Origin: a virus
IMG/VR virus record: IMGVR_UViG_3300015263_000944
Span: 1-43,394 of that record
Length of the DNA: 43,394 nucleotides
Strand: one strand, 5' to 3'
The notes below the pieces were generated by a model. That model searched no databases. It saw only the letters and a program-made list of their open reading frames with translations, and was not told the DNA's origin. How positions within the stretch are numbered: the first letter of the stretch is position 1; each line of letters starts with the position of its first letter. A program made the position numbers and the translations under genes. Below are positions 3,176 to 41,559 of this stretch, piece after piece.

Positions 3176-4420
3176 CTACCGCTTGGACTCGAAGTATTCG
3201 GCTGTGACCTTGCGACCACGATGCTCGATGCCTCGCTTGTCCAGTTCGGCCAACCCTGCCTCGGTGATACAGCATCCTCTGCCGCTGACGGAAACCACAT
3301 AGGGTCCGCCGCCAGTGTAAGCCATTAGGAACGGCAGTTCGTACTTCTGCACCTGCTCGATGCGGCATTGAGCCACGCCGGGCAGTCGGGTTTCAGCGAT
3401 AGGACGCTGACCAAGAGCCGCCAAAATAGCAACCTGCTTCTTGGTGAAACCCCATTCGTCGAGGCCGATGTCCTCAGCCACCGCAGCACAAGCATCCTGC
3501 CATGTATGAGACGGCATGATGTCTCGACGCTGAATGACCTTGGTTGCGAAGTTGAGAGCTTCACGAGGCACACGACGATACTGGGCGACCATTTCGCAGA
3601 CATCTTCAGGCATAGTGCCAGTCAGATCGCCTACGGCATGGTACTCGTCCATCTTCATCTTGACGATTTGAGTGATCTCTTCCACGCCAGCGGCGTGCCA
3701 CTCGATGGCCGTACCCAAACGATTTTCCAGAGCATCGAACAACATGCCACGTTCAGTGGTCGCTGCCACCCAACAAATGTTGCGGCAGTTGACCTGCTGC
3801 TGTTCAGCATTGATGCCGGGGGCTTTGAGGGCCATGATCCCGTCATCACGCTCCATCGCATTCAAGAGTCCACCCTTCATCATCTTGCGAGGAATCAGAT
3901 GGGCTTCATCGAAGAACACGATGCACGGCGGCACGGTGTAATCGGTGTTGTCTTCGGGGTTCTTCCACTCGACAATAGGCTTGAAGGTGATGTCACCCTT
4001 GATCGGGCTGTAAAGGCTGTCCCCACCGAACGTGTGCTCGGCGAAAGCATCCTTGATTTGCTCGAACAAGTCCCATGTATTGGCGATGGATGCAGCTTGC
4101 ACGAAGACGAACGGAATACCGATGGTCTTGGCGAACTGTTTCACCACATAGGTCTTACCCTGACCGCTCCCGGCATAGATGCCGAAGTTGCAGCCACGCA
4201 GCGAACGGTTGAACCGCTTGAGGGCCGTGAAGGCGAAGTCACGCAGAATCCGCATGTTGCCTTCATTGGCGTCACTGACGATCACCTTGTTCAGAGGGCA
4301 GTTCTTGTTGTTGTTCGACAACGCCATCCGAATCTGTTCCTCGGTCGGAGCCGCAGGCAAGCTGGGATACTTCCGGTCGGAACTGGGATCGAAGAAAACC
4401 TTCATTAACTGTTGAGTCAT
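3176..4420 (-). CDS. RuvB-like AAA+ ATPase (Holliday-junction branch-migration helicase-like)
   Basis: Track ORF 3176..4468 starts at TTG directly abutting the motif; I use ATG 4420 (MTQQLMK, SD AAAGGG). Walker A GSGQGKT, Walker B FFDEAH, sensor-1 AATTERGMLFDALENRLG closely resembling RuvB ATTR.G.L...R.G, C-terminal winged-helix-like tail. Confidence 0.6.
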   Translation of the reverse strand: MTQQLMKVFFDPSSDRKYPSLPAAPTEEQIRMALSNNNKNCPLNKVIVSDANEGNMRILRDFAFTALKRFNRSLRGCNFGIYAGSGQGKTYVVKQFAKTIGIPFVFVQAASIANTWDLFEQIKDAFAEHTFGGDSLYSPIKGDITFKPIVEWKNPEDNTDYTVPPCIVFFDEAHLIPRKMMKGGLLNAMERDDGIMALKAPGINAEQQQVNCRNICWVAATTERGMLFDALENRLGTAIEWHAAGVEEITQIVKMKMDEYHAVGDLTGTMPEDVCEMVAQYRRVPREALNFATKVIQRRDIMPSHTWQDACAAVAEDIGLDEWGFTKKQVAILAALGQRPIAETRLPGVAQCRIEQVQKYELPFLMAYTGGGPYVVSVSGRGCCITEAGLAELDKRGIEHRGRKVTAEYFESKR

Positions 4421-4470
4421 GGGAAACGCCCTTTCTTGGAATGCGTCACAACTTTTGTACTGATGCAATC

Positions 4471-4483
4471 CAAGCGGGTGTTA
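4471..4483 (-). promoter_or_regulatory. conserved intergenic motif copy overlapping the TAA stop of the sigma-factor gene
   Basis: caagcgggtgtta; tta at 4481-4483 is the stop codon of ORF 4481..5380. Confidence 0.5.
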
Positions 4484-5380
4484 CGCAGCGTACTGGGCGT
4501 CCCGACCCACCAGATAATCCTTCATCTTGTCGCAAGCCCTTTTGAACGCAAGACATAGGGCGGCTTTGGTGTACAGATTTCCCGTGTTTGGATTGATCCG
4601 GGTCCGAGTCATTTCGGCTCGCAGCGAGGAATCGCCAACCATATAGCCGACGACCAGTTCCCGTTCGAGATCGGTCAGGCCAGCTTCGTCGATGGCGAGT
4701 TGAATTTCCTCTTCATCGATGGGGCCGTCGCCGAAATTGCCACCAGCCGAAGAGACTTCAGCAGCCAGCGGAATCGTCTTGTACATGGCATCGGCCACCT
4801 TATCGGCCTGTCGGTCGGAGATGTCCTCCCCTTCCTTCCGCAGCAATTGGATGGCTTCCTCGAAGCTGCATTGTCGCTGGCTCATGGTCCTCATCACCAT
4901 TCGGCGAATCGTTTTGATCGCACGTCCCACACCAGCACGTTCCTCTTGTTCACGGACGTAGCACGACATGGCACGTCGGAGGGCAGTATGCAAGAGCGTC
5001 GTAAAAGCGGTGCTGCCGTCATAGTGTTGGACGGCATTGACGAGGGCCACGCATCCCTCTTGGATGTAATCGTCTGGCTCGATCTCGGGATTGTCCCGGC
5101 GATTCGACTTCCAGAAAGAGTTCGCCATCCAGCAGACTTGGCGGATGTACGCACTGAGGAATGAACCCTCAAATCTCAGAAGTGCCTCCATCATCCGACG
5201 TGTCTCACCTCGCAGGGAAATCGCTCCCTGAAGAAAGTCGGTGCGAAGCCGCTTGATGTTGGCCTCGCCATACTTGGTGGCCGCAAACTTCTGCAAGCAG
5301 CCCACGACTTCGCAGAGTTCATTGTCTCGGTCGGCCCGCTCTGCATCGGTCCAATGCGTTGCTTTGATGGTGGTCGCCAT
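4481..5380 (-). CDS. sigma-70 family RNA polymerase sigma factor (regions 2 and 4 recognisable)
   Basis: Track ORF, ATG start. Region 2-like YIQEGCVALVNAVQHYDGSTAFTTLLHTALRRAM and region 4 HTH-like DLERELVVGYMVGDSSLRAEM...TKAALCLAFKRA. Confidence 0.6.
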   Translation of the reverse strand: MATTIKATHWTDAERADRDNELCEVVGCLQKFAATKYGEANIKRLRTDFLQGAISLRGETRRMMEALLRFEGSFLSAYIRQVCWMANSFWKSNRRDNPEIEPDDYIQEGCVALVNAVQHYDGSTAFTTLLHTALRRAMSCYVREQEERAGVGRAIKTIRRMVMRTMSQRQCSFEEAIQLLRKEGEDISDRQADKVADAMYKTIPLAAEVSSAGGNFGDGPIDEEEIQLAIDEAGLTDLERELVVGYMVGDSSLRAEMTRTRINPNTGNLYTKAALCLAFKRACDKMKDYLVGRDAQYAA

Positions 5381-5427
5381 GAATCGATCTCCCTGTGCTT
5401 GTGTTGTTGTGTAGGTTTCTGCGGTAC

Positions 5428-5439
5428 AAGCGGGTGTTC
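5428..5439 (-). promoter_or_regulatory. conserved intergenic motif copy upstream of sigma-factor gene; forms 5' arm of a hairpin with 5456-5465
   Basis: acaagcgggtgtt ... cccggcttgt complementary arms seen in sequence. Confidence 0.45.
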
Positions 5440-5471
5440 ATTGTGACAGACACGGCCCGGCTTGTAAAGGT

Positions 5472-5681
5472 TCATTCTCCAATTTGCGTTTCCCCAAAAT
5501 GGATCGTGTCCTGATGGGGGCTGAGAAAGTGCTTGCAAATGTGATCCGTCACAAACTCTATTGGGTCAACACCTTCTGGTGCCAACTTTGCCCAGTCCTT
5601 CACCCGTTGGGTGGTTTCGGAGTTCGTCTTCCGTCTCAGATGGAATCGAACATACCGACGAACTGCTTCTCGGGTGATCAT
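5472..5681 (-). CDS. hypothetical small basic protein (69 aa)
   Basis: Track ORF, ATG 5681 preceded 13 nt upstream by motif copy 5693-5705. Confidence 0.4.
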   Translation of the reverse strand: MITREAVRRYVRFHLRRKTNSETTQRVKDWAKLAPEGVDPIEFVTDHICKHFLSPHQDTIHFGETQIGE

Positions 5682-5692
5682 TGGTCTCTCTC

Positions 5693-5705
5693 CAAGCGGG
5701 TGTTA
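5693..5705 (-). promoter_or_regulatory. conserved intergenic motif copy; adjacent small hairpin agtcca-cttt-tggact 5705-5721 overlaps TAG stop of upstream gene
   Basis: Read directly. Confidence 0.45.
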
Positions 5706-5719
5706 GTCCAACTTTTGGA

Positions 5720-6910
5720 CTAGAAGCATCCCGCACATTGTTCACAGTCTTGGAACTCGAACTGATCGATGATGGGCAGCGAAGGCATTCCATCAATCAA
5801 CCCATTCGTTTGTATGAAATCGGCCATGCGCCCAGAACGATGCTTTGTGCGATGTCCCCACAATCCCTCAATCACTTGCAGTTGTTCTTGGCAGTTGTCT
5901 TCCATGCGAACAATGGCTCGCAGATAGTCACGACCATGTTCGGTTTGGGAATACAACTCCAACTCTTCTGCGGTGGTGGATGGACAGAACCAGCAAGCTG
6001 ATTTGACCGGCACCCCACCTTTCTTGATCCACTTGCGGCCAGTGTGATCGGACCAGCCGGGCAGACCTTCCTTCCGAATCTCTTCAAGGCATCGTTGACG
6101 ATCCCAGCCGAGTTCGATCAAAGGATACCAGTATTGGTACAACTGATCGTCGGTGATCTTGAATGAACGCCGTGAGTCATTCGGGCTTGCATCATAACCA
6201 ATCGCCACGATGCCTTGGTAGTGCTTGTCCCAGCACGTCTGGAATTCGTCAAGGCTCTCCCGGTATTTGTTCTGAGGCCCGATCTTCCACTTGGCACTGC
6301 ACTTTTTGCGTTTGAATGCCCATGAGGGGAGCGTGCGGTTGACGAGGCACTGTTGCTCCAGTGTGTGATACCAACCATTCTTCACTCGATCAGGAGAGGG
6401 CTTGTATCGCACAGTCACAACAGGCGGGAAACCCATCTGCTTGAGGTAGTCTTGAATGACTGGCTCGTAAGCATAGGTCTCTTTCTTCTCCGAGCCGGTG
6501 TCGGCGAAGGTGATGCAGGTCGGGCGGAACTGCGGACGCTTGTTCTTCTGTGAGTTGTAGAGCCGTGCCAGATGAATGAGCAGAGCGGTGCTGTCCACGC
6601 CCATCCCATAGCACACGGAGAAGGGACGGCCCATGCGGATGCGTTCCCACATGTTGTCGAAGGTGACAACCGGTGCAGGCTTGCACTCGGTCTCCATCTC
6701 CATGCTGAGTATGAGGCCACGAACTTCGGTGGCATTACCCAGCTTCATTTTCTTGGCCCAGTCAGATCGAGCTACATCCGCACACAGTTTGTTGAATGCG
6801 GCGAAGGGATCGGCGGCGATCTCTTCATCCATCTTCCATTCGATGTCGCTGATGACCCGCTGGAAGCGGGTGCGGTTGGGTTGTGCTTTCTCTTTGGTTT
6901 TGGTCGGCAT
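5720..6910 (-). CDS. PAPS reductase / DndC-like PP-loop ATP pyrophosphatase family protein with C-terminal Cys cluster
   Basis: Track ORF, ATG start with SD GGAGAA. PP-loop-like YGMGVDSTALLIHL (variant of SGGxDS) and C-terminal CWFCP...CEQCAGCF; TAG stop. Confidence 0.55.
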   Translation of the reverse strand: MPTKTKEKAQPNRTRFQRVISDIEWKMDEEIAADPFAAFNKLCADVARSDWAKKMKLGNATEVRGLILSMEMETECKPAPVVTFDNMWERIRMGRPFSVCYGMGVDSTALLIHLARLYNSQKNKRPQFRPTCITFADTGSEKKETYAYEPVIQDYLKQMGFPPVVTVRYKPSPDRVKNGWYHTLEQQCLVNRTLPSWAFKRKKCSAKWKIGPQNKYRESLDEFQTCWDKHYQGIVAIGYDASPNDSRRSFKITDDQLYQYWYPLIELGWDRQRCLEEIRKEGLPGWSDHTGRKWIKKGGVPVKSACWFCPSTTAEELELYSQTEHGRDYLRAIVRMEDNCQEQLQVIEGLWGHRTKHRSGRMADFIQTNGLIDGMPSLPIIDQFEFQDCEQCAGCF

Positions 6911-6941
6911 GTGGTTCTCCAGTTTTCCTGATGACGAACCA

Positions 6942-6953
6942 CAAGCGGGTGTT
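6942..6953 (-). promoter_or_regulatory. conserved intergenic motif copy sitting in the loop of inverted repeat tgacga(6932-6937)/tcgtca(6956-6961)
   Basis: Read directly; lies between TGA stop 6959 and ATG 6910. Confidence 0.45.
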
Positions 6954-6958
6954 GCTCG

Positions 6959-7177
6959 TCACACGTCGATGAATAACGGATAACTCGTCAGCAGGCCCAT
7001 TGCTTCGTCATACACCGGGCCGCTGTTCTTCAATCCCAGATTCTTTCGCAACCAGTTCATGTCGTGTCGCAGGATCTTGGGAAAGTTGAGTAGCTCCAAG
7101 AGTGATTGAAGCCTGATCCTCGCCGCCCTCTGTTCTGGTGTCGGCTGAGGCATGAGGTAAGCGAAACATTCTGGCAT
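6959..7177 (-). CDS. hypothetical small protein (72 aa)
   Basis: Track ORF 6959..7225; the 7225 start lies inside the motif, so I use ATG 7177 (MPECFAYL) with SD GGAGAA. Confidence 0.4.
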   Translation of the reverse strand: MPECFAYLMPQPTPEQRAARIRLQSLLELLNFPKILRHDMNWLRKNLGLKNSGPVYDEAMGLLTSYPLFIDV

Positions 7178-7202
7178 GGTGATTCTCCTCTCTGTTGATC
7201 CA

Positions 7203-7215
7203 CAAGCGGGTGTTA
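7203..7215 (-). promoter_or_regulatory. conserved intergenic motif copy (TTTAACACCCGCTTGT) immediately after terminator hairpin 7222-7251
   Basis: Read directly. Confidence 0.5.
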
Positions 7216-7221
7216 AACGCA

Positions 7222-7251
7222 ACAAGCCGCCTCATTGCTGAGGCGGCTTGT
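7222..7251 (-). terminator. 13-bp perfect stem-loop (acaagccgcctca-ttgc-tgaggcggcttgt) 30 nt downstream of ParB-like gene stop
   Basis: Perfect complementarity read in sequence; followed on minus strand by TGCGTTTAACA. Confidence 0.55.
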
Positions 7252-7281
7252 GATGCGATTGGGGTTCTGACCGGAAGCGGA

Positions 7282-22835: not shown

Positions 22836-24587
22836 TTACGCAGAACCGAAACACCTTTCGACTGACATATTCTGCGGCTGAATTCCGTGCTTCTCCGCAA
22901 AATCCTGAAGGTCATAGCTGTGATTGATGCCTCGTTGCTGTCGAGAGATTCGCTTCACAGCTTCTCGGAAGTCATCAACGATGACACCGGTTCGAGTCTT
23001 GGCTGCCAGATCACGATGGAGGGCGATCATCTTGGCTTCTTCAGCCAATGCCGCCAGCATTGCACCATTCACTGCATCGCCAAGGGTGAAGTCGTGTTCG
23101 TTGTTGACCCGATACAAAGTGCGTGACTTGGAGAACAAGTCCGACACCGCAAGGGTTATGGTTCCCATCATCTGAGAAGCATCAGCAAACGGCAAAGTCT
23201 TTGTGTGAATTTGCAAAATGTCGATGGCTTCCATCTCGCCGGGGCGATCAACTTTGATGTGCTTCGAGATGCGTCCCGGTCGAGTGATGGCTGGATCGAG
23301 AATGTCTGCCCGGTTGGACATCAACACAACAATTGGATTGGCTTCCGTATCGCTCGGATCAACACCATCCATCTCGCCTAAAAACATAGGTACGATGGTG
23401 TCAGACACATCACTGCTGCGACGAGTTCCACGTTGTGGCATAATGGCATCAGCCTCATCGAAAGCAAGCAGAGCTTTGTATCCATGCTGACGGTAGTGAT
23501 GGCGAGCACGCCGAAACAGTTCTCGGATCTCAGCCTCGGTGTTTCCAACCCATTTGCTGAGGATTTCAGGTGATTTGACGAAGATGTATCCACTTTCAAT
23601 AGCCTCCTTGCCATGTGCGTTTGCGACTGCCCATGCCATAACTCTTGCGAGCAGTGTCTTGCCGCAACCGGGAGGGCCGAACAACAACACACCACGCAGG
23701 GCTTGTACGTCGTAGTATTTGAAAAGGTCTGGCTCAAGGAATGGCAACTCCAGTGCGTCTCGAAGTTGCTGCTTGGCTGTCTCCAAACCACCAACATCAT
23801 CCCATGTGGCAGTGAGTTCAGATGTGACCTTGTAACGATCACTGTTATCTCGTGCCAACTTCTCCATTACGCAGAACATCGTAGGATCACAGGCGACTCG
23901 ATCACCTTCTTCCAATGCAATGCCACGAGGGTTGTTGACCAGATGTTTCTCGCCTTTGAGTTCAACTTCGACGCTGCTCTCTCCAACGAATGCAACAACA
24001 CGACAAATCGGGCCAGCATGAAGGTCATAGCCACGAGACACAATGGCTTTCGTGTCAGGCTTCACTTTGACTGGCTCGCCCACTTGTAGGTCGAGATCAC
24101 CGAGACCTTGAACTTCCCACGGCTTGCCGTCGATGCTCACCACCGCAAAGGTGCCATCGGTTTTTTCAGACAGGCGCACTTGTGCTGCGGCCTTGCCCTC
24201 GACACCAATCGGGAATCGCACTTCTTCTTCATTGTGCAACTTCACGAGCACTGTCCCATCGTCATCAACGATGGGAGTCTCGTTCAAGCCACTGATGATT
24301 CGCCCGCCTTGCTGGTAATACGGCGAATCAGGATCAACGACAACAACTTCATCGTTGGTCTTGAAGCAGCGAGGGTCCACTGAATTGTGGACTTTGAGAA
24401 GCGTGCCGAAGCACAGAGGCTCGCCTAGCAGGCGTTTCAGCTTTTCGTGATGCTGAATGAGTTTGGCTGTGAGATCACGATTGATGTCACGCAACTCAGT
24501 AATGTCATCATGGAGCCGACGTGTCTGTCTGCCGACTCGACGCTGAACTTCGGCCTCGATGAATTGTTCTACGTTCTGATCTGTCAT
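22836..24587 (-). CDS. AAA+ ATPase with N-terminal coiled coil and OB-like region (proteasome-associated ARC/PAN-like architecture)
   Basis: Track ORF, ATG. Walker A LLFGPPGCGKTLLARV, Walker B LLAFDEADAI. Confidence 0.6.
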   Translation of the reverse strand: MTDQNVEQFIEAEVQRRVGRQTRRLHDDITELRDINRDLTAKLIQHHEKLKRLLGEPLCFGTLLKVHNSVDPRCFKTNDEVVVVDPDSPYYQQGGRIISGLNETPIVDDDGTVLVKLHNEEEVRFPIGVEGKAAAQVRLSEKTDGTFAVVSIDGKPWEVQGLGDLDLQVGEPVKVKPDTKAIVSRGYDLHAGPICRVVAFVGESSVEVELKGEKHLVNNPRGIALEEGDRVACDPTMFCVMEKLARDNSDRYKVTSELTATWDDVGGLETAKQQLRDALELPFLEPDLFKYYDVQALRGVLLFGPPGCGKTLLARVMAWAVANAHGKEAIESGYIFVKSPEILSKWVGNTEAEIRELFRRARHHYRQHGYKALLAFDEADAIMPQRGTRRSSDVSDTIVPMFLGEMDGVDPSDTEANPIVVLMSNRADILDPAITRPGRISKHIKVDRPGEMEAIDILQIHTKTLPFADASQMMGTITLAVSDLFSKSRTLYRVNNEHDFTLGDAVNGAMLAALAEEAKMIALHRDLAAKTRTGVIVDDFREAVKRISRQQRGINHSYDLQDFAEKHGIQPQNMSVERCFGSA

Positions 24588-24919: not shown

Positions 24920-25705
24920 TTAGCTGGCGTTGCGAATCTCCACAACCCGAATCTGCTGGCCGTTGCAATCGAGATCCTTCGTTTCGATCACAAAATCCTC
25001 GGCAATGTCGAGGCCAGCGGTTCTGAGCGTGCGGCTGTAGAGCCGCATATCGCCGTTTCGCTCGATTTGCTGGGTCTGACCGGAAGGCCCACCCAAGGTA
25101 TCGACGACTTCATCGTACTTCTCTTCCTGCGTCAACAGGATGCGGTTGTTGGCCGTGTCCATGATGACCTGTACGGGGTCGTTGTGGACGAGACCGAGTT
25201 CCTTGACGAACTCCGTGCGGACCATGAGGCGATTGCGGTAGTCCGTGCTGAACGTGCCGTCCGTGTTTTGACCACCGCTGTCATTGCCGTTGTTGCTCGG
25301 CGCAGCCGGGGCGGCAGCAGCAGCGACGGCTGCGACGGGTTGCCCGCTGTGACTGGGCTGGGGACGACTCTGCGGCGTGGCACTTCCGCCCCGAGCCTGA
25401 TACTGGTTCGGATCGGCGGTTTCGGGATGATAGACGAAGGCCCAGCCGCCACCCGGCATGTTCATCTGCGTCTGTTGCCACTTCATGTCGTTGCCGTTGG
25501 GATCGGTGTGACCCCAATCGATGGCGTCCCGGAGGCACTGGATTTCGTGGATGCCGCCACGCACGTCCTTGTGACGCATCTGGACGTTCTCACGCTGGCG
25601 GGTCTCGATGGTCACATCGTAGCCGGTGAACATCCGGCCTTCATCGAGAAACTGCTTGACGGTAGCTTCGAGTTGTTGTTCGGTTGTCGGGTCGAGTTGG
25701 CACAT
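24920..25705 (-). CDS. hypothetical protein with AbrB/MazE-like C-terminal region, tentative
   Basis: Track ORF 24920..25759 (GTG) trimmed to ATG 25705 (MCQLDPT) behind leader CCCGATCAAGGAGACC. Confidence 0.4.
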   Translation of the reverse strand: MCQLDPTTEQQLEATVKQFLDEGRMFTGYDVTIETRQRENVQMRHKDVRGGIHEIQCLRDAIDWGHTDPNGNDMKWQQTQMNMPGGGWAFVYHPETADPNQYQARGGSATPQSRPQPSHSGQPVAAVAAAAAPAAPSNNGNDSGGQNTDGTFSTDYRNRLMVRTEFVKELGLVHNDPVQVIMDTANNRILLTQEEKYDEVVDTLGGPSGQTQQIERNGDMRLYSRTLRTAGLDIAEDFVIETKDLDCNGQQIRVVEIRNAS

Positions 25706-26557: not shown

Positions 26558-26629
26558 GAGTTCTCCTTGATCGGGTGTACAAGGTCATTGTATGGCACAA
26601 ATCAAGGAGAGTTCACTCCAACTTTTGGA

Positions 26630-28294
26630 CTAGAAGCTGATCTCGGCGAGATACTTCATCTCGATTCGACCACGCTTGTAGATGATCCATTCGTTGTTCT
26701 GGAGTCCGCCGTAGACGCCCCACGATGCGGTGTGACCAGCCTTGCCGAACACGCAGTGGTGCGGATTGGGCGGCGAGGTGAAACCGTGAGCATCCTTGGC
26801 AACGTGAGGGTTGCCGCAGATCACATCGAAGGCGAACATGAAGGCGTGACGACCAACCACTTCACCGCCACCACCATAGTAGGAGCGACGACCGGGATTG
26901 CACGACGAGCAATACCCTGCGGACTTTTTCCAATCGTCCGCAAAATATGACCCCGGCCCGAACATGGCACCGGTGATGATGACGCCGGTAAGTTGGTTCG
27001 GGAATCGCAGGTTCTCTCGTACAATGCCCGGCACGTTGACTGAACGTGTGCCGTGGAACATCAGGGCCGTGTTGGTATCGTAGTACAACTTGCGTTCCTG
27101 TGCCGTCAGATCGGGACGCTCACGCCACATCTGGTGCAATGGACGCTCGTTGTTCCACTTCTTCGGCATCTCGCCCAATGTGGCTTCCTGAGCAGCACGC
27201 ATGATCTTGCTGTCGCCGTCACGCTCGATTTCCCACATGTTGTGGACCTTGAGCTTGCCGACGTGACCATGCTTGTTGCGAGTGGAGTTGATCCACCAAT
27301 CTTCCAACCACTTGCCTTTCTCGCTCTTGGGGTCGAGATAAGCGACCTTGGCGGGAATACCGGCCATCACGTCGGTCTCGTCTTCCTCGATGTTCATGTC
27401 AACGGCTTGCAATGCCGTCTCGAACGCATCGATGTCGAGCCGCCATGTGGAGATGTTGTCTTGGCTCAGAATCCAGTCCGCTTCGGCGATACCCTGCGGC
27501 TTCGCCTTTGGAATGATGCCGTACAGGTGATAGGTGAGTTGCTTCAACTCGGTGTCGCTGACCTGAGCGGCCACCTCATTGCCGACGATCTTGATCCGAG
27601 CCATCGCATCATCCAGCACATCACGCCCTTCATCGAGGGCAGCTTGGGCTGGCAACGTGACCTTGCCGCTTTTGCCGCCAGACATGACGGCGTTGGTGTA
27701 GCTCACAGCACCACCGATTAGATCGGTGAACAACTTGCGAGTCTGCGGATCGAGATTGGACTTCTTCTTGGTCGTCTTCTTCTTCGAGGTAGGAGCGGCA
27801 GCCGGGGCAGCATTTGCGCCCTTGGCATCTTCGTTGGCGAGATTTTCGCAGCACGGCAAACCGACCAGACGTGTCGCCGACAAACGGACGACATACAAGT
27901 CTTTGCCCGGCTTGGCGACGAAGCGATCCTTCGAGCCGACCTTCTGCCATTGCCCACGACTGGTGTTCTTCGACTTGAACTGTTTCTCGCAACAGTCCTG
28001 TGCGTCTTGTTTCGACGAACACTCATGGAACTGGAATGAGGGCTTGTTGGGGCGACCGTCAGGCCGTGTGCGACCCCACTCGAAGTAGGCATAGAATTTG
28101 TTGTTGATGGTCGATTGGACGACGGCCAAGTGGTAATACTTGTTCGAGTCCACATCTTCCTGCTTGAAGCAGCCGAGATCGCAGAGGCAGGCATCGCCCC
28201 ACTCAGTATCTCGGCTGACGACCGGGCCGAGACCTTTGAAGTCACTGACACTGTGGCCCGCTGGCAGCGTTTGTTTTGCAAGTTTGGTCGCCAT
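26630..28294 (-). CDS. poly(ADP-ribose) polymerase-like protein: WGR domain + PARP catalytic domain with H-Y-E triad
   Basis: Track ORF, ATG with SD GGAGGAT. WGR motif YFEWGRTRPDG; catalytic motifs LMFHGTRS, GAMFGPGSYFADDWKKSAGYC and LQNNEWIIYKRGRIEMKYLAEI match the PARP1 sequences I recall. Confidence 0.65.
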   Translation of the reverse strand: MATKLAKQTLPAGHSVSDFKGLGPVVSRDTEWGDACLCDLGCFKQEDVDSNKYYHLAVVQSTINNKFYAYFEWGRTRPDGRPNKPSFQFHECSSKQDAQDCCEKQFKSKNTSRGQWQKVGSKDRFVAKPGKDLYVVRLSATRLVGLPCCENLANEDAKGANAAPAAAPTSKKKTTKKKSNLDPQTRKLFTDLIGGAVSYTNAVMSGGKSGKVTLPAQAALDEGRDVLDDAMARIKIVGNEVAAQVSDTELKQLTYHLYGIIPKAKPQGIAEADWILSQDNISTWRLDIDAFETALQAVDMNIEEDETDVMAGIPAKVAYLDPKSEKGKWLEDWWINSTRNKHGHVGKLKVHNMWEIERDGDSKIMRAAQEATLGEMPKKWNNERPLHQMWRERPDLTAQERKLYYDTNTALMFHGTRSVNVPGIVRENLRFPNQLTGVIITGAMFGPGSYFADDWKKSAGYCSSCNPGRRSYYGGGGEVVGRHAFMFAFDVICGNPHVAKDAHGFTSPPNPHHCVFGKAGHTASWGVYGGLQNNEWIIYKRGRIEMKYLAEISF

Positions 28295-28331
28295 TGAAAA
28301 TCCTCCGGGTTTCGTTACTTGGTTATCGCCA

Positions 28332-28344
28332 CAAGCGGGTGTTA
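28332..28344 (-). promoter_or_regulatory. conserved intergenic motif copy 3 nt after TAA stop of gene 28348..28653 and 37 nt upstream of PARP-like ATG
   Basis: acaagcgggtgttag read directly; the only copy outside the 0.8-10.2 kb block. Confidence 0.5.
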
Positions 28345-28347
28345 GCT

Positions 28348-28653
28348 TTAGTCACCGGTTGCGCCGAACATCCATTCCAAAAATTGGACCAGACCTTCCA
28401 TGGCCTGCTGACGCTCTGGCGTCGTGTATCGATAGGTGAGCCGATAAATCGGCAAGCCTTCTGCACTGGTGTCGTGTCGCACGAGAAACCAATCGTTGCC
28501 ATTGTCGAGTTGCCATGAGTCACTACCCATGCTCGTTTTCTGGTATGGGATCGTGTCTCCCTCACGCTCTCTCGGCACTTGGCCGATCACCATCGCCACT
28601 CGTTGAGCGACGAATGCTTCAGGTGTCTTCTTGGCTGTGCGGAAGTAGATCAT
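28348..28653 (-). CDS. hypothetical protein
   Basis: Track ORF, ATG; ATGA overlap with the upstream stop. Confidence 0.45.
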   Translation of the reverse strand: MIYFRTAKKTPEAFVAQRVAMVIGQVPREREGDTIPYQKTSMGSDSWQLDNGNDWFLVRHDTSAEGLPIYRLTYRYTTPERQQAMEGLVQFLEWMFGATGD

Positions 28654-29426: not shown

Positions 29427-30140
29427 CTAATCTGCCAACTTGTTCGGAACCATTGGAGCAGTCATCCAGTTTTGAGAGGTCTGGACGTGGTTGGCTCGAA
29501 CGTATTTCGCACAATGGGTGCGAAATTGTTCATAGAGAAATCCCTCAGTGGCTCGTACAACATAGCCCTCTGCCTCACAAGGCAGGAAGTCACGGGGGAA
29601 CTCGGGGACCGGCACTTCGTGGGAATCTTCGGCCAGTGCAAAAGTTGGAAAGGTGCCATTGCACTCCAGACCCTCTACCCATCGCTCACGCACCGTCTTT
29701 TCGTCCCAAACTCCACGCCACAGCACAGGCACCGTTTGGAGGCCCAAGTCTTCGCAGATTGCTTCCACTTTGTCCCACGGCAGACAGAGATTGTCATTGT
29801 AGATGCCGTAAACGAAGAAGTACGAAGGAAGCTGGTCATAGAAGATAGAGTGGTAGGCGTACACGTTCTCGCCGCAGATGCGGAAGTTCTGCGGGATGCG
29901 GTAGGCGAATGTGGCAGCGAAGCTCTTCATCCATGATCGAGATGGATGGTGCTTGCTGTCAATTGAACGAGCGTGCGTGTGTCCATCGGGATACACGGTC
30001 GTACATTCCCCGTCGAGCTTCTCAGTCATCACGACTTCCCGACCATCAAATGCAGTGGTATCGCTCCACCACACATCGTCGGAAGAGTTCGACTGGCTCC
30101 AAGGGAGGTTCATCGTTCGTGGGTATTTGGTGCGTTCCAT
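29427..30140 (-). CDS. compact ATP-dependent RNA/DNA ligase-family nucleotidyltransferase (motif I KLDGE, motif IV EGYVVR)
   Basis: Track ORF, ATG. Confidence 0.5.
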   Translation of the reverse strand: MERTKYPRTMNLPWSQSNSSDDVWWSDTTAFDGREVVMTEKLDGECTTVYPDGHTHARSIDSKHHPSRSWMKSFAATFAYRIPQNFRICGENVYAYHSIFYDQLPSYFFVYGIYNDNLCLPWDKVEAICEDLGLQTVPVLWRGVWDEKTVRERWVEGLECNGTFPTFALAEDSHEVPVPEFPRDFLPCEAEGYVVRATEGFLYEQFRTHCAKYVRANHVQTSQNWMTAPMVPNKLAD

Positions 30141-35304: not shown

Positions 35305-35907
35305 TTATCTCTGAAGTTGCGCCGTCAGCCCTGAGCGAGTGTACTTCATCATCGTGAAGACATCACTCCCGAAAGCCTCACTGATTTCCTCGCCACGGGT
35401 AAACATAGCATCCATCAAATCGCTGGCCTTCTTCCAGTATTTGACGGCGTACTCAGGATCACTCGACAACCAATCGCAGACGTTGCAGAAACGGTCGGCG
35501 CACTTGATGACCAGAGCATCCACGCTCTTCTGCATGAATGATCGCATGTAATCCCGCTTCTGAATGTGGTCGGGTCGCTCATCACGAGGGTCAGGAATGA
35601 ACGTCAACTCGCTCACGATTGAAGCGGCATCTTCGCCGATCACAGCGATGAGTTCCTCATCTGTGACACCACAATCCTCTTTGGTGTCATGGCAGATGGT
35701 GGCCTTCCATACCTTCAGATTCCGCAATTCCCACTCCGTACCAATGACTGTGAGAACAGACATGGGATGGACAATGAAAGGCAGGCCGCTTCCCTTGCGG
35801 AACTGTCCTCGATGTCGATCTGTGGCGAAATCAATGGCTGCGAGAATCTCGGATTGAGCGTCTTCTGTAAAGACATCCGGTTCAGGCGGCGGGATCACTT
35901 TGGTCAT
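35305..35907 (-). CDS. HD-domain small alarmone hydrolase (SpoT/Mesh1-like (p)ppGpp hydrolase family)
   Basis: Track ORF, ATG with SD GGAGGAGG. Motifs HRGQFRKGSGLPFIVHP and ICHDTKED. Confidence 0.6.
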   Translation of the reverse strand: MTKVIPPPEPDVFTEDAQSEILAAIDFATDRHRGQFRKGSGLPFIVHPMSVLTVIGTEWELRNLKVWKATICHDTKEDCGVTDEELIAVIGEDAASIVSELTFIPDPRDERPDHIQKRDYMRSFMQKSVDALVIKCADRFCNVCDWLSSDPEYAVKYWKKASDLMDAMFTRGEEISEAFGSDVFTMMKYTRSGLTAQLQR

Positions 35908-36013
35908 ATTTTACCTCCTCCGTGCAGGTAATTGGCTTCCAATATCATCCGTAAGGCCCGCTACAGTTTAGACCAAACGGGAGGAATGTCAATCCTGCAC
36001 CATAAATAACGTG

Positions 36014-36745
36014 ATGACAAACTTCGTAATAATTGCAGAACTCCGTTCGGGATACCAACTTCTCGCCACACTGCTGAATTCAAATCCAGAGGTGTTGTGC
36101 TTGGGAGAGATTTATGGCCGCAAGAGATCTGTAAGAATACAGAGCCTTTTCGGCAATGAAGTTCCAGTTCTCGAAGATAGCGACTCGTCTGTGAATTACT
36201 TCAAGACGGTCCTTGCTCCATTGGCAGAGCGAACGAACCGGAAAGCTTTCGGTTTCAAACTCAATTATGTGGACTGCATGGAAAACGACAACTGGCGAGA
36301 GTTGTGGGATTTCATTGCGTCAGAAAGATGGCACGTCATTCATCTCCGACGACTCAATGTGCTGGATCGAGCCATCTCAGAGAAACTCGCCATTGAACAA
36401 TGGCGATGGAACAACGAGCAATATGACACACAGATCAGGATCACGTTTGATGAACTAGAGTTCTACTACCAACGTGCCCTTCGATGGCAAAAGTGGGCCA
36501 ACGATCACTTCAAAAACTCACCCATCTGCCATGTGACCTATGAAGAACTCACAAGGCAAAGATACCAAACCTGTCAGAAAGTGCAAGAGTTCTTGGGGGT
36601 TCAACCAAGAGAATTGACCTCGTTCATGCAAAAGCAGCGTGTGGGCGGGCAAGCTACATTCGTCAAAAACTACCGCCGACTCTACAGTCAATGTGTGAGC
36701 CACCCCATCTACAAGCACTGGCTAACCGACATCCCAGTCATCTAG
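36014..36745 (+). CDS. sulfotransferase (Stf0-like PAPS-binding loop RSGYQLLATLL)
   Basis: Track ORF 36011 (GTG)/36014 (ATG); weak SD. Confidence 0.5.
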   Translation: MTNFVIIAELRSGYQLLATLLNSNPEVLCLGEIYGRKRSVRIQSLFGNEVPVLEDSDSSVNYFKTVLAPLAERTNRKAFGFKLNYVDCMENDNWRELWDFIASERWHVIHLRRLNVLDRAISEKLAIEQWRWNNEQYDTQIRITFDELEFYYQRALRWQKWANDHFKNSPICHVTYEELTRQRYQTCQKVQEFLGVQPRELTSFMQKQRVGGQATFVKNYRRLYSQCVSHPIYKHWLTDIPVI

Positions 36746-37856
36746 GGAACGAAATCTGGACCAGTTCTTGGATTTCGGATGCGGCCTTCTTGTCCACCAA
36801 TGGGGCGACATCAAATGGCTTGATGTACTGCAAATCCATCTTGAGTTCTTTGGCTCGCTCTTGAGCTTTCAGTGAGTTCTCCTTGAAGATGCCGACGTTG
36901 TTTTGGTTGAGGATCAAGTCCCCCAACTGAACCACCCCTGCTTGATCGTAGGTGGGAAGCATCCAGATTGAGTCCACCCCGATGTCGGCTGCCATCTCAA
37001 CCATTGCTGTCATCTCATGTACATTCAGCATATTGATGTTGTTGTAGATGGTGGTTCGATGATGCCACCCCTTCCCAATCTCATCTCGTATCTTGATCCA
37101 TCGCCTGAGATTCGCAACTACCTTATCCAACGCATCCAAGCGGCGAATCTTTTTGTGCGTAGCTGGCGTGGCGGCATCTAAGGACCACGAAATTTCCGAC
37201 CAATCTACATTGTCAAAGAATCTCCGACACACCTTCTCTGTGAGACAAATGCCGTTGGTGTTGGTGGTGAATCGAATGTGATGTTTCTCAAAATCAAACC
37301 GCACCTTCTCGAAGATACGGAACACAGCATTTTGCCAGAATGGTTCTGCAATCCCAAGAACAGAAAACTGGGTCAGATAAGGCATGAGTGGCCGGGCCTT
37401 CTCGCACAGCATATCGGTCAAATCCTCCTGTTGTGGCTTCACAAAATTGCGGATACACATGATGCACGCAGGGTTTTCCTCACTGGGCTCATACCCTCCA
37501 ATGTTGCAGTGCCGATCTGGAAGACAAATCTCAAGCCATGTGGGGTAAAATGAATTCGCATATGTGGGGGCCGGTCCAGACTTCTTTGGTTTCACCTTGT
37601 AAGGACAAGCTGTACCTTGACCACATACAGGATGCAATTGCCCCGCCTCTGTTTGTTTGCGAATTTCATTCGCTAATGGACCTCTCCAAAGATCAAGAAC
37701 TTCTGTGGTAGCATCCAGCCTTCCGAGTTGAACCATCTGGTAACAACACATCGATACATCGCCCCAACTATTGAGAATCACTTTGTTGTGAGGGTTGGAG
37801 CAGAATGTATTGGTTTTGGTTCCAAATCGTCCTATATCTTGAGCCAGTTTCAGCAT
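36738..37856 (-). CDS. non-canonical radical-SAM-like enzyme, paralog A (FC-x17-CC N-terminal motif; HCNIGG-x13-ACIMC; GIAEPFW; TTNTNG)
   Basis: Track ORF 36738..37970; I choose ATG 37856 because it gives the same spacing to the FC motif as the paralogs and removes the 110-nt overlap (37907 or 37934 also possible). Confidence 0.45.
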   Translation of the reverse strand: MLKLAQDIGRFGTKTNTFCSNPHNKVILNSWGDVSMCCYQMVQLGRLDATTEVLDLWRGPLANEIRKQTEAGQLHPVCGQGTACPYKVKPKKSGPAPTYANSFYPTWLEICLPDRHCNIGGYEPSEENPACIMCIRNFVKPQQEDLTDMLCEKARPLMPYLTQFSVLGIAEPFWQNAVFRIFEKVRFDFEKHHIRFTTNTNGICLTEKVCRRFFDNVDWSEISWSLDAATPATHKKIRRLDALDKVVANLRRWIKIRDEIGKGWHHRTTIYNNINMLNVHEMTAMVEMAADIGVDSIWMLPTYDQAGVVQLGDLILNQNNVGIFKENSLKAQERAKELKMDLQYIKPFDVAPLVDKKAASEIQELVQISFPR

Positions 37857-37860
37857 ATCA

Positions 37861-39459
37861 TCAAATGAACATGGGGCGTTGACCAGTAATCGAGACAAGC
37901 TCGACATCTTTACCAGCCATATCCTTCTGGGCATCCTCCAGAGTGTTACAAATCGGTCTCTTCTTGCCATTCAGTGAAGTGTTAATCAAACATTCCACAC
38001 CACTTTCTTCACCATAAGCTACCAACAACTGATGCAGCCATGGATCGTCTTGCTTGTTTACTACTTGGGGACGAGCAGTCCCATCTTTATGAACAATGGC
38101 AGGCAGCAACTCTTTTGCCTCTTCCGTACAATGCACTCGATATTGCATGTATTTTCCACGGGGGCCAATGAAGAAGCGGTCAAATTGCTCTGCTGTCACA
38201 ATCGGAGCAAGAGGTCGGTAGAACTCTCTCTTTTTAATCTGTTGCGAAACTCTTCTGAGGTTTTTTCTATTCTTCGCAGAAGCAAGGATCGAACGAAAGC
38301 CTAGTGCCCGTGGACCAGCTTCGGCTTTGCCACGCAACAGACCGATTACCTGACCGTTCGATAGTCGTGATGCGATTTGTTCCGGCTGCTGTGGGCCGAG
38401 ACGAGGCAGAGGCGTTTGCAAGGTGTGCAAAGAAGGTGACGAGAGTTTGGGCCACCAACCATTGAGGTGATAGAAAGCCCATGCTGCGGCACCCAGAGCA
38501 AGTCCGCTATCATCTGTTGGGGGACCGAACACCACGTCTTTCACCATGCCGTGAATGCGTGTGTTGAGTTCGAGGGCCAGTGTTGTGCCACCACCAATCA
38601 CCACACCTCGACCCATTCCAAATTTTGTAATGTTGTCTTCAATCCCCGGCCAGATGATATCGTTGGTGTACCACTTGTAAAAGTGGGCAACGTAATCCAT
38701 GTTCTCTCGGGTAAGTTGCCACGAGTAATTAGGAATTGTTGGATATTGAGTGGTGTGCGTGTATGGGTCCATGCTGAACTCCACCGTCTTTCGCACAAAC
38801 TCCCAGCCATTCCATTTTCGACAGTTGGTGACATATCCAGCCAGCCCCATAGCCTTTCCAGCACTGTTGTATCCCAACAGACTCGTGAGGGGGATGCTGG
38901 TCGGGATGACAGGTGCTCGCTCAAATCTCCGTACTCCTGATGGTCCAATCTCACCCACCAACGAAGAATGAGGAACACCATGAGCGTCTAATCCGACGCC
39001 ATCGTATGCCATAAAGAACCGTTCTTGGTCATCTGGCCGAAAACACCAAGCAGAAACTATGTGAGCGAGATGATGGTTGATCACCATGTCTGGGTTGCGA
39101 CCCAGCGTCCAATAGATGAAGTTTTCTCGTTCCTTTGGTGCGTAGGAGCGGATCAGGAAAGGATCGTATTTTGTTGATTCTGTGCTGATGTTACCGATAC
39201 TATGCCACAGTTCCTCTTTGGTGGCGTGCTCTCCACCAATTGCCACCAAAACACAGAAATCATCATCCCGCAGCGGCCCGAGATCGGGAAAGTATTCTGC
39301 CAGACAGCTTAATGCAGGCTTCTCGGCATTGTAATCATATCCGCCGTGGTTCTTTTTCCTTTTGTAGCGTTCGCATTGAGCGTAGAACTCAACCTCGCCG
39401 TCCTCATTGATAATAACGACTGCCGAATCATGTCCAAAATGTACGCCGATGAATCTCAT
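37861..39459 (-). CDS. carbamoyltransferase (NodU/CmcH family)
   Basis: Track ORF, ATG. N-terminal MRFIGVHFGHDSAVVIINEDGEV and HHLAHIVSAW hallmark motifs. Confidence 0.65.
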   Translation of the reverse strand: MRFIGVHFGHDSAVVIINEDGEVEFYAQCERYKRKKNHGGYDYNAEKPALSCLAEYFPDLGPLRDDDFCVLVAIGGEHATKEELWHSIGNISTESTKYDPFLIRSYAPKERENFIYWTLGRNPDMVINHHLAHIVSAWCFRPDDQERFFMAYDGVGLDAHGVPHSSLVGEIGPSGVRRFERAPVIPTSIPLTSLLGYNSAGKAMGLAGYVTNCRKWNGWEFVRKTVEFSMDPYTHTTQYPTIPNYSWQLTRENMDYVAHFYKWYTNDIIWPGIEDNITKFGMGRGVVIGGGTTLALELNTRIHGMVKDVVFGPPTDDSGLALGAAAWAFYHLNGWWPKLSSPSLHTLQTPLPRLGPQQPEQIASRLSNGQVIGLLRGKAEAGPRALGFRSILASAKNRKNLRRVSQQIKKREFYRPLAPIVTAEQFDRFFIGPRGKYMQYRVHCTEEAKELLPAIVHKDGTARPQVVNKQDDPWLHQLLVAYGEESGVECLINTSLNGKKRPICNTLEDAQKDMAGKDVELVSITGQRPMFI

Positions 39460-39482
39460 GTCGTTATCATAGTATATACCGT

Positions 39483-40508
39483 ATGATCAATTCGTGGAGA
39501 ATCGAACGAACCGCCTTTTGCAACTATCCTTTTCAGAGGGTCAAAATAGACTCCGAGGGATACTGCAACTTCTGCTGTTCTCACGCTCGTCGCTGTCTGG
39601 GGAACGTCTTAGAGAAAGATCTCTGGGACATTTGGAACTGTCCAAAAGCCAAGAAAATTAGGGAAGACACGTTGCGAGGCGTAATGCACCCGACATGTGC
39701 CCAAGAATCATGTCCTCTCTTCCATATTAGAGACAATCTACCTTCTAAGACGTTTACCCAAAAAGAGTTGCCATCTCAATTTGAGATTGATCTACCAAAT
39801 ACCCACTGCAACATCGGCGGCACGAAGCCTACCGCAGACACAGCTTGCATCATGTGCGAGAGGGCTGCCCCCAATTTCGTCCCACAAATTGATCGGCTGC
39901 CAGAAGTTTGTGAGGCCCTGAAACCTTATGTGAAATACATCGACACGATCCATGTGCAAGGAGTGGCCGAACCATTCTGGCAAGGCCGCATCTTCGATTG
40001 TCTGGAGGCTCTGGGCGTCGATAAATACAAAGATCAAATCGTGGTCAGCACAACCACGAATGGCACCGTGATCGATGCAAAGAAGATGGAAAAATGGTTG
40101 GCATATCCGAAAAGTTGCGCCACCTTCTCGTTGGATGCCGCAACACCAGAGACGTACCAAAAGATCCGTCGCCTCAACGCCTATCACGCTGTGATCAAAA
40201 CCATGCTGAGGCTTAACCAACAGCGAACCGGACAACAGAAGATGTACATCCACAACAACATCAATCTGTTGAACATCGCCGAGGTCTCACAGATGGTTGA
40301 AACGGCAGCAATGGTGGGCGCAGATTCTATCAGCTTTCAGCCAACATCATGTTTGCCGGGATTAGAGGTGTCGGCTTCCAACCTCAAACAATTCAATGAA
40401 GCCGAAACACAAATTTTGGAATCAGCAGATAGGCTAGGTGTGACTGTGGAGTTTTGGAGAAAGTTGACGCTGGACATTGAGCCCACCCTTGTTCAACTTA
40501 AAGTGTGA
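39483..40508 (+). CDS. non-canonical radical-SAM-like enzyme, paralog B
   Basis: Track ORF, ATG. FCNYPFQRVKIDSEGYCNFCC; HCNIGGTKPTADTACIMCER; GVAEPFW; TTTNGT; C-terminal IHNNINLLNIAEV. Confidence 0.5.
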   Translation: MINSWRIERTAFCNYPFQRVKIDSEGYCNFCCSHARRCLGNVLEKDLWDIWNCPKAKKIREDTLRGVMHPTCAQESCPLFHIRDNLPSKTFTQKELPSQFEIDLPNTHCNIGGTKPTADTACIMCERAAPNFVPQIDRLPEVCEALKPYVKYIDTIHVQGVAEPFWQGRIFDCLEALGVDKYKDQIVVSTTTNGTVIDAKKMEKWLAYPKSCATFSLDAATPETYQKIRRLNAYHAVIKTMLRLNQQRTGQQKMYIHNNINLLNIAEVSQMVETAAMVGADSISFQPTSCLPGLEVSASNLKQFNEAETQILESADRLGVTVEFWRKLTLDIEPTLVQLKV

Positions 40509-41559
40509 GTTGAACAAGGTGCTCTGTCATGCCCAGATCGAGCGGGCGGATGAAGTTGTAAGGCACATTCAATCGCTTGCATTCTGCAATAATATCTTGT
40601 TGGGCCTTTTTGAAGAGCCCACAGTTGTCCTCATTGACCAAGATCTTGTAATTGAACCCATCTGTAGGATTGAACTCGACATATTCCACATTGGCCTTGG
40701 CTGCGATCTGCACCATACCTACAACTTCTTGAACATTCATGATGTTGATGTTGTTGTGGATTCGTAAGAACTGGCGACTTCTTACACGCTCTTTCGAGAA
40801 AGCGTAAAGAGTTTCGATCACTTTGTCGAAACAGTCGAAGATGCGGATTCTCTTGAAGGTTTCCGGCGTGGCGGCATCGATTGAGAAGTTTGTGATGCTA
40901 TGAGGGGCACGTCGCAAATACTCCTCACGCACTCGCTTCTTTAAGAGTGTGCCATTCGTTGTGACACTAAGTGTGATTTGATCGGCATACTCATCGAAAC
41001 CTAAAACGTCCATCACATCAAACAACAGAAAACCATCTTCCCGTGTTTGCAGGAACGGCTCAGCAATACCTTGGATGTGAATCTGTTTGAGATTGGGAAC
41101 AATATGCTTGATTCGTCCCAACACTTCAAACAGATGATCTTTCTCTGGCCTGAAGAATGGAGCGGATCGCTCGCACATAATGCAAGCTGGCGACTTCTCT
41201 GGATCAGGGTTCTTTCCGCCCACATTGCAGTGAGTGTTGGGGAGGTCGATTTCTAAGAAGTTGGGATACTCGTTGTAGACAATCCGCTTCTTGGGATAGG
41301 GTTTCTCCATCGACTTGTAAGGACAGCCCGGAGTACAACATTTGGAATGGAGTTGCCCATTGCGAGTCGATTCTCGGATCGCCTCGGCCACTTCTCCAAA
41401 CCACACCTCATCGAATGTGTTCTCCAGCACATTGCCCACATAGGCTTCCGCCTCGGGCTTCAGAGGGTCGGGCCGCATGAAGCAACACATGGCAAGGTTG
41501 CCCTCGCATGTGATTCTGGCCCGGTTGAACGGCATGTCACAAAAAGCTTCTATCCACAT
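40498..41559 (-). CDS. non-canonical radical-SAM-like enzyme, paralog C
   Basis: Track ORF, ATG. HCNVGGKNPDPEKSPACIMCER; GIAEPFL; TTNGT. Confidence 0.5.
   Translation of the reverse strand: MWIEAFCDMPFNRARITCEGNLAMCCFMRPDPLKPEAEAYVGNVLENTFDEVWFGEVAEAIRESTRNGQLHSKCCTPGCPYKSMEKPYPKKRIVYNEYPNFLEIDLPNTHCNVGGKNPDPEKSPACIMCERSAPFFRPEKDHLFEVLGRIKHIVPNLKQIHIQGIAEPFLQTREDGFLLFDVMDVLGFDEYADQITLSVTTNGTLLKKRVREEYLRRAPHSITNFSIDAATPETFKRIRIFDCFDKVIETLYAFSKERVRSRQFLRIHNNINIMNVQEVVGMVQIAAKANVEYVEFNPTDGFNYKILVNEDNCGLFKKAQQDIIAECKRLNVPYNFIRPLDLGMTEHLVQLTL

Follow-up and report, generated by a model that had tools for sequence, protein, structure and literature searches.

What is a protein built like the DNA-break sensors of eukaryotes doing on a phage-type genome? 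The question is raised by a gene in IMG/VR virus record IMGVR_UViG_3300015263_000944, of which positions 1 to 43,394 were analysed as one stretch of 43,394 nucleotides (nt), called the window below. The gene (26630-28294, minus strand) encodes a protein that belongs to the PARP (poly(ADP-ribose) polymerase) family, referred to here as the phage PARP. It has an intact PARP-type active site and a conserved WGR sensor motif, shares an upstream signal with a block of genes elsewhere in the window, and is co-inherited with a DNA-binding partner. We propose, with a probability of about 0.5, that the phage PARP is a nucleic-acid-activated ADP-ribosyltransferase that works with this partner, a winged-helix/MraZ-like protein, in conflict between phage and host.

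The open reading frame (ORF) starts with ATG and encodes 554 amino acids (aa), its coordinates including a TAG stop codon. A strong Shine-Dalgarno sequence, GGAGGA (28301-28306, minus strand), was read 6 nt 5' of the ATG. From the N to the C terminus, the protein consists of an N-terminal extension, a WGR domain, a Lys-rich disordered linker, a helical domain (HD) and an ADP-ribosyltransferase (ART) catalytic domain; all coordinates of these parts refer to the minus strand. The WGR domain (27914-28186, approximately aa 37-127) was matched by Pfam WGR (PF05406) at aa 48-118 (E 6.4e-6, 26.6 bits against a cutoff of 22), and the ART domain (26633-27367, approximately aa 310-554) by Pfam PARP (PF00644) at aa 385-553 (E 1.4e-19, 70.8 bits against a cutoff of 26.7), both above the curated thresholds. 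PHROGs assigned the C terminus to phrog_23333, 'polymerase'. The linker (27749-27853, aa 148-182) is rich in Lys, Ala and Pro and predicted to be disordered; its sequence varies across the family and its lysines are kept. The predicted PARP_reg-like helical domain occupies 27395-27748 (approximately aa 183-300). Pfam PARP_reg (PF02877) was matched in none of the 41 family members. A profile of the family aligned to the PARP1 helical domain with an independent E-value of 5.7e-6, and the region also falls within the full-length structural alignments described next.

An AlphaFold2 model was built from the 41-sequence family alignment (predicted local distance difference test, pLDDT, 86.2; predicted template modelling score 0.86). 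It shows a beta-rich N-terminal domain containing the WGR fold, a disordered Lys-rich linker with pLDDT below 50 at aa 164-176, a helical bundle at aa 183-296 (helices 183-205, 217-237, 241-260 and 281-296) and an ART domain. In Foldseek against the PDB, the whole chain matched PARP1 WGR-HD-ART bound to a DNA double-strand break (7s6h, 4dqy) and break-bound PARP2 (6x0l), with E-values of 1e-22 to 1e-19 and template modelling scores, normalised to the target, of 0.62-0.70. Over its entire length, the model thus fits the WGR-helical-catalytic modules of human PARP1 and PARP2 in complex with DNA breaks. When the PDB was searched by sequence, PARPs alone were returned; human PARP1 WGR-HD-CAT constructs ranked first and aligned over three collinear stretches corresponding to the WGR, helical and ART domains, with W73-G74-R75 placed on the 'WGR' of PARP1.

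Catalytic residues were conserved throughout. H414, G415, Y450, K457, S458, Y461, N534 and E535 are invariant in the 41-sequence alignment, and the same eight are invariant in 32 sequences of a cellular sister clade. The residues of the site for nicotinamide adenine dinucleotide (NAD) align with the HG, GIYFAD, KS..Y and NEY segments of PARP1, and the codons of the H-Y-E triad lie at 27053-27055 (H414), 26945-26947 (Y450) and 26690-26692 (E535) on the minus strand. Pfam PARP was detected in 41/41 family members and WGR in 40/41. In 73 sequences compared over the WGR motif, G74 is invariant, position 75 is R or K and position 73 is always aromatic. In both clades, this pattern points to selection for activity and ligand sensing. 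The phage PARP matched the profile and structures of the H-Y-E, diphtheria-toxin-like PARPs only, and so was not placed in the R-S-E clade (T4 Alt/Mod type). On the evidence of profile, structure and conservation, it is a PARP of predicted WGR-helical-ART layout with all NAD+-binding and catalytic residues.

A first-pass annotation of the window, made from sequence, had described a phage-encoded PARP-like enzyme in which a WGR domain is present and the H-Y-E triad intact. This description was upheld by all three lines of evidence, and the peptides it quoted were located in the translation: HGT at aa 414-416, GAMFGPGSYFADDWKKSAGYC at aa 442-462, NEWIIYKRGRIEMKYL at aa 534-549 and YFEWGRTRPDG at aa 70-80. 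It had also pointed to the glutamate needed for chain elongation. This residue, E535, is present and invariant, but the H-Y-E triad is necessary and not sufficient for polymer making, since PARP3 and PARP4 have the triad yet are mono-transferases; PARP4 also carries the label mono-ADP-ribosyltransferase. The 'polymerase' label therefore goes beyond what the triad of the phage PARP supports, and poly- versus mono-ADP-ribosylation cannot be read from its sequence.

At least 707 relatives were found in metagenomic data. The top 120 relative clusters are all full length, 47-100% identical and metagenomic, on contigs of up to 693 kb. Twenty-four viral contigs of IMG/VR, 16-572 kb long, carry full-length relatives, as does a 595-kb GenBank record labelled 'uncultured phage' (LR756511), and relatives are also present on metagenomic contigs of 618-693 kb. 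The clade is thus a large metagenomic one, on viral contigs of 100-690 kb. Gene order is common to the window, contigs of 618 and 622 kb, and a 55-kb contig carrying the same PARP as a 691-kb contig. No structural genes were found in the 43-kb window, which does carry genes typical of large phages (HNH endonucleases, T4-type RNA ligases, a SpoT-like hydrolase and an amber-suppressor tRNA). Among cultured phages, a relative was found in 8 of 50,697 records. The statement in the first-pass annotation that such enzymes are rare in phages thus fits the cultured records and does not fit the metagenomic family. WGR-PARPs as a kind are not new: they were already known in bacteria, and annotated ones in cultured phages.

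Cellular relatives were counted in a collection with one genome per species. The 44 loci are nearly all from Planctomycetota (Pirellulaceae, Gemmataceae and Isosphaeraceae), and include the isolate Neorhodopirellula pilleata Pla100 and closed chromosomes of 7.8-8.3 Mb. Planctomycetota are for this reason the probable hosts, and the PARP-bearing genome is most likely that of a very large bacteriophage of Planctomycetes. A crude, midpoint-rooted neighbour-joining (NJ) tree separated a diverse phage clade, which includes the phage PARP, from a Planctomycetota clade, into which the PARP of LR756511 fell.

Two ORFs downstream of the phage PARP lies the gene of its partner (24920-25705, minus strand). 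In the 261-aa product, a disordered linker joins a winged-helix domain at the N terminus to an MraZ-like tandem AbrB/SpoVT fold at the C terminus. It belongs to a family of 81 members without a Pfam domain, encoded on the same contigs as the PARPs; two members are named PrlF-type antitoxin by the Joint Genome Institute (JGI). The partner was found near PARP in 15/29 viral loci, always downstream and on the same strand, at a distance of 0.05-2.8 kb and often with other genes in between. Its N-terminal domain is homologous to the N-terminal extension of Planctomycetota type XIII retron reverse transcriptases (RTs). This domain was found in 23/44 cellular loci, as a fusion to a retron RT directly upstream of PARP in 18 and as a free gene abutting PARP in 5. 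A functional connection between PARP and partner is well supported, because the linkage survives both changes in gene order and fusion.

In approximately 18-21 Planctomycetota loci, PARP occupies the fourth place in a tightly packed operon. The genes are HEAT-ARM_XIII (gene D; PADLOC E 3e-160), SWIM_XIII (gene C; PADLOC E 1e-183), an RT_XIII with the winged-helix N-terminal extension (gene B; PADLOC E 2e-154, Pfam RVT_1 E 1.6e-22), the WGR-PARP (Pfam) and a Macro domain protein (gene E; Pfam E 1.2e-45). The example examined here is at 2014-10123 of locus L019, from N. pilleata Pla100 (NZ_SJPM01000010.1), where the Macro gene overlaps PARP by 4 nt. The same operon is present in L012, L013, L015-L017, L020, L024, L025, L030, L031, L039, L040 and others. 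Genes D, C and B are all three components of a type XIII retron (Mx162/Mx65 class), to which the operon adds a writer and an eraser of ADP-ribose. No PADLOC model matched PARP or the partner, and an association of PARP or Macro with type XIII retrons was not found in PMC7736814 or in the other retron and ADP-ribosylation literature searched.

The phage PARP is preceded by a 13-nt promoter-like motif, TAACACCCGCTTG (28332-28344, minus strand), 37 nt 5' of its ATG. With up to two mismatches allowed, the motif is found 10 times in the window, each time on the minus strand, whereas 0.8 copies are expected from shuffled sequence (0/100 shuffles reached 10). Nine copies lie within 816-10221 (at 816, 3113, 4471, 5427, 5693, 6942, 7203, 8833 and 10209), and the tenth is at PARP, so that the first-pass annotation was correct, for the window, in calling PARP the only gene outside the 0.8-10.2 kb block to carry it. 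Each copy is followed, after 11-129 nt, by a same-strand ORF that starts with ATG and is at least 69 aa long. The genes behind the copies in the block encode an Rnl1-like ligase, an ArdC-like anti-restriction protein, an AAA+ ATPase, a sigma-70 region-2 factor, a PAPS-reductase-like protein, a ParB-like protein, an AAA_5 ATPase and two small ORFs. L074, whose PARP is 79% identical, is the closest relative; there the motif stands unchanged 5' of PARP within a kept block of approximately 30 nt, AGCTAACACCCGCTTGTGRCGATAACCAA, and the flanks and the upstream gene differ. The motif is absent 5' of PARP in the more distant relatives compared; in L003, a hairpin and TTTACA-N17-TATACT precede the gene instead, which there too suggests a transcription unit of its own. 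We infer that TAACACCCGCTTG is a lineage-specific promoter-like element placing PARP in the regulon of the anti-restriction block. Co-regulation with the block, as suggested by the first-pass annotation, is thus plausible in view of the exact conservation in L074, its promoter part being a reading of the motif that no sigma-70 match backs.

The sigma-like protein in the block (4481-5380, minus strand) matches sigma-70 region 2 only, with partial ECF/FliA-like matches. Its gene is itself behind a copy of TAACACCCGCTTG, and it is a candidate reader of this single-element motif.

Genes for end processing were also found around PARP, all on the minus strand: a T4 Rnl1-like ligase (3-737), a PF09414 RNA ligase (29427-30140), a protein with a weak 2H-phosphoesterase match (19779-20405) and a NudE-like NUDIX hydrolase (18819-19454). 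From their sequences, they look like a scattered toolkit for processing RNA or ADP-ribose ends. A PF09414 ligase is encoded approximately 0.3-6 kb upstream of PARP in 10/29 viral loci.

The following mechanism is proposed. The phage PARP would be catalytically active, consuming NAD+ as an ADP-ribosyltransferase of the type represented by PARP1/2/3 and the bacterial PARPs. By analogy with PARP1-3, HaPARP and CdPARP, its helical domain would keep the catalytic site closed, and binding of the WGR domain to a nucleic-acid ligand, which is a DNA end or nick in the known enzymes, would release this autoinhibition. NAD+ would then be used to modify PARP itself and DNA-associated proteins in its vicinity, or possibly the ends of nucleic acids. 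The gene would be transcribed as a unit of its own from the 13-nt motif common to the block of anti-restriction and host-takeover type, and the product would act together with the winged-helix/MraZ-like protein encoded two genes downstream. The pair would then be a conflict module directed against DNA-associated machinery of the host or of a competitor, rather than a housekeeping repair factor. This is suggested because the same pairing of PARP and winged helix sits in the retron XIII-PARP-Macro operons of the probable hosts. With the sister clade set between retron and Macro genes and the regulon being of ArdC type, a conflict role is the most likely function. Domain architecture, the conserved catalytic and WGR residues, the motif with its conservation and the gene linkage were observed here, whereas activation by nucleic acid, timing of expression, targets and the conflict role itself are inferred.

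Several observations weigh against this proposal. To our knowledge, no phage PARP has been biochemically characterised. The RT, SWIM and HEAT genes are absent from the window and from all 29 viral loci, so that the retron linkage is confined to the cellular clade. No Macro, PARG or ARH eraser was detected by Pfam in window ORFs of at least 50 aa, nor by a hidden Markov model of the host-operon Macro domain over the 43 kb, which leaves the reversibility of ADP-ribosylation by the phage unexplained; a Macro domain lies within 10 kb of PARP in 1/29 viral loci. A third phage lineage (10/29 viral loci) has PARP with no detectable partner, so that the partner is not obligatory. TAACACCCGCTTG matches no sigma-70 or other known promoter consensus, and consensus scans were at chance level. 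Finally, the ligase, NUDIX and 2H-like neighbours would suit a repair or RNA-end role equally well.

These neighbours bear on the possibility that the phage PARP is a sensor for genome maintenance, which would mark nicks or breaks in a very large phage genome with ADP-ribose and recruit phage end-healing and sealing enzymes such as the adjacent ligase. WGR-HD-ART is the architecture of the eukaryotic break sensors, and this role has been proposed for jumbo-phage 'PARP1' genes (PMC11662467). The upstream PF09414 ligase of ten viral loci, together with the second, Rnl1-like ligase, the NudE-like NUDIX and the weak 2H match of the window, could supply the enzymes recruited. However, the ligase linkage follows one syntenic phage lineage and may reflect mere collinearity, and no reader or eraser of poly(ADP-ribose) is evident in the window. 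The tighter, order-independent linkage is to the DNA-binding partner and, in hosts, to the retron and Macro genes, which are hallmarks of conflict systems; we therefore regard a maintenance role as unlikely. The same two ligases, 2H-like protein and NUDIX could instead serve an enzyme that mono-ADP-ribosylates phosphorylated DNA or RNA ends, capping phage or host termini. PARP1-3 and Tpt1-type enzymes can modify such ends in vitro, and the WGR domain of PARP2/3 recognises 5'-phosphorylated ends. No sequence feature separates this activity from protein modification, however, and the association with end-processing genes is loose, which makes end capping highly improbable as the function.

Two further explanations keep the phage PARP within conflict and assign it another part. 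It could act in counter-defence, with the winged-helix domain and PARP disturbing the host retron XIII-PARP-Macro system, for example by titrating multicopy single-stranded DNA (msDNA) or the RT-docking surface, or diverting NAD+ from NAD-dependent immunity. The phage clade is sister to the retron-linked Planctomycetota clade, the phages keep PARP and the N-terminal winged-helix domain of the RT without RT, SWIM, HEAT or Macro, and the motif is common to PARP and the ArdC-like anti-restriction gene. A pure decoy would need no invariant catalytic triad, however, depletion of NAD+ would harm the phage too, and the midpoint-rooted NJ tree gives no direction of transfer; we rate counter-defence as distinctly unlikely. 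The MraZ/AbrB fold of the partner's C-terminal domain, typical of antitoxins and repressors, and the two family members named PrlF-type antitoxin would agree with a toxic PARP restrained by its partner and freed on superinfection or DNA damage to abort competitors. Huge phages do carry inter-phage conflict systems, and the host order of PARP followed by Macro recalls the DarT-DarG pairs of writer and eraser. The partner lies 0.05-2.8 kb away, often with genes between, and is not translationally coupled as in typical toxin-antitoxin pairs, and it is missing from one phage lineage. A toxin-regulator pair used in exclusion is accordingly improbable, and an ADP-ribosyltransferase acting with its partner in phage-host conflict remains the preferred reading.

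A wider proposal can be made tentatively, as a possibility that we hold to be rather doubtful. The WGR-PARP and the winged-helix/MraZ-like protein may be a hitherto unrecognised two-component ADP-ribosylation module common to the retron-PARP-Macro immunity operons of Planctomycetota and to their huge phages. In the host, the retron msDNA or RT complex would gate the PARP effector, and Macro would reset it. The phage version, which lacks the RT and the eraser and would be expressed with anti-restriction genes, would be a captured effector directed against the host or rival phages. If true, a retron with a PARP effector and a function for a phage PARP would each be described for the first time.

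Other elements of the window were recorded. A tRNA with anticodon CUA, an amber suppressor, was found at 15921-15992 (minus strand) by Rfam and ARAGORN. TAG is the stop codon in 5/9 complete motif-preceded genes, PARP included, and in 1/30 other genes (Fisher p approximately 0.002, with the truncated tenth gene counted as non-TAG). Together with the amber tRNA, this bias may reflect regulated readthrough or recoding of stop codons elsewhere in the phage. A 13-bp palindrome, TCCAA-N3-TTGGA, has 12 copies against 1.9 expected, nine of them with one mismatch. The perfect copies are at 26617-26629, 28376-28388 and 5707-5719; the first two flank PARP, one overlapping its stop codon and the other 32 nt upstream of the promoter-like motif. 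The palindrome is not kept around PARP in the closest relative, and it may be an operator or a cassette boundary.

Downstream of PARP, a 583-aa AAA+ ATPase (22836-24587, minus strand) has full-length likeness to the proteasomal unfoldases Mpa/ARC/PAN (TIGR03689, E 3e-79, below the family cutoff). It is kept just downstream of PARP and partner in one phage lineage (10/29 viral loci). At 35305-35907 (minus strand), a SpoT/RelA-type HD_4 hydrolase domain is encoded on its own, probably as an alarmone hydrolase, and such a domain is found within 10 kb of PARP in 13/29 viral loci. The region 36011-41559 encodes three radical-SAM/SPASM proteins, a carbamoyltransferase and a sulfotransferase; this cluster is partly conserved in relatives and suggests a pathway for modification of a peptide, nucleoside or glycan on the phage genome.

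Within the literature searched, the size and host range of the clade, the partner protein and the retron XIII-PARP-Macro operon in the host phylum appear to be new. The clade is abundant and its catalytic and sensor residues are strongly conserved, and genetic handles are provided by a co-inherited DNA-binding partner and a defined upstream motif. Its cellular counterpart stands between a retron and a Macro eraser. What is known of prokaryotic PARP function so far rests on two in vitro studies, and the present system offers a route to the activator of a bacterial-type WGR-PARP, to its targets during infection and to the place of ADP-ribose polymers in prokaryotic immunity. Eukaryotic DNA-damage PARPs are thought to derive from conflict systems of this kind, so that the answers would also bear on their origin.

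Phage PARPs as such are an already known class, having been listed in earlier surveys and annotated in individual genomes. Perina 2014 listed them, including those of Aeh1 and Cellulophaga phi4:1, and they also appear in Iyer 2021, Iyer 2022 and a 2024 jumbo-phage survey (PMC11662467). Annotated examples from cultured phages are those of Xanthomonas XacN1 (BBA65562), Klebsiella vB_KpM_FBKp34 (QQV91759) and Stenotrophomonas RAS14 (WAX21566), included here as L076-L078. Like the phage PARP, these have a WGR-like N terminus, a helical middle part and an H-Y-E ART, and the GenBank record of FBKp34 names all three domains. They are compact (423-428 aa) and, unlike the phage of the window, have gammaproteobacterial hosts. 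Only the catalytic half aligns to the phage PARP, at 25-34% identity and 26-38% coverage. The local gene order of XacN1 and RAS14 looks shared, with an acyl-CoA thioesterase approximately 1.5-1.7 kb downstream of PARP. All three are jumbo or large phages and experimentally tractable models for phage PARP function.

The type XIII retron (Mx162/Mx65) consists of an RT, a SWIM/DEDE protein and a WGR-like HEAT/ARM protein, this accessory protein itself having a WGR-like domain (PMC7736814). The sister-clade PARP is directly downstream of all three; the phage PARP, in contrast, is not part of a retron, and the RT, SWIM and HEAT-ARM genes are absent. The assayed bacterial PARPs resemble it in carrying the WGR, helical and H-Y-E ART domains in one chain of approximately 420-550 aa, and in most of them, as here, Pfam PARP_reg is undetected although the helical domain is modelled (PMC5966428). 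Two of them, HaPARP and CdPARP, carry out poly-ADP-ribosylation in vitro in a DNA-dependent manner (PMC5966428, PMC8120803). The assayed enzymes are chromosomal, show DNA-dependent PARylation and are paired with PARG, whereas the phage PARP is on a phage-type genome with no eraser in 43 kb. It adds a 47-aa N-terminal extension, a Lys-rich linker and the winged-helix/MraZ-like partner, and is known here from sequence.

Human PARP1, PARP2 and PARP3 share with the phage PARP the three-domain WGR-HD-ART fold and the NAD-site residues H, G, Y, K, S, Y and E. Identity is 17-19%, the phage protein has no zinc fingers or BRCT domain, and Y986 of PARP1 is replaced by N533. We know of no HPF1-type cofactor in bacteria. 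T4 Alt, ModA and ModB, and DarT, are likewise NAD+-using ADP-ribosyltransferases of phages or conflict systems that reprogramme or poison an opponent, and DarG corresponds to gene E of the host operon in being a Macro eraser. Alt and Mod are of the R-S-E clade, and DarT has no WGR or helical domain and modifies thymidine in single-stranded DNA, whereas the phage PARP is of the H-Y-E clade and carries a WGR sensor.

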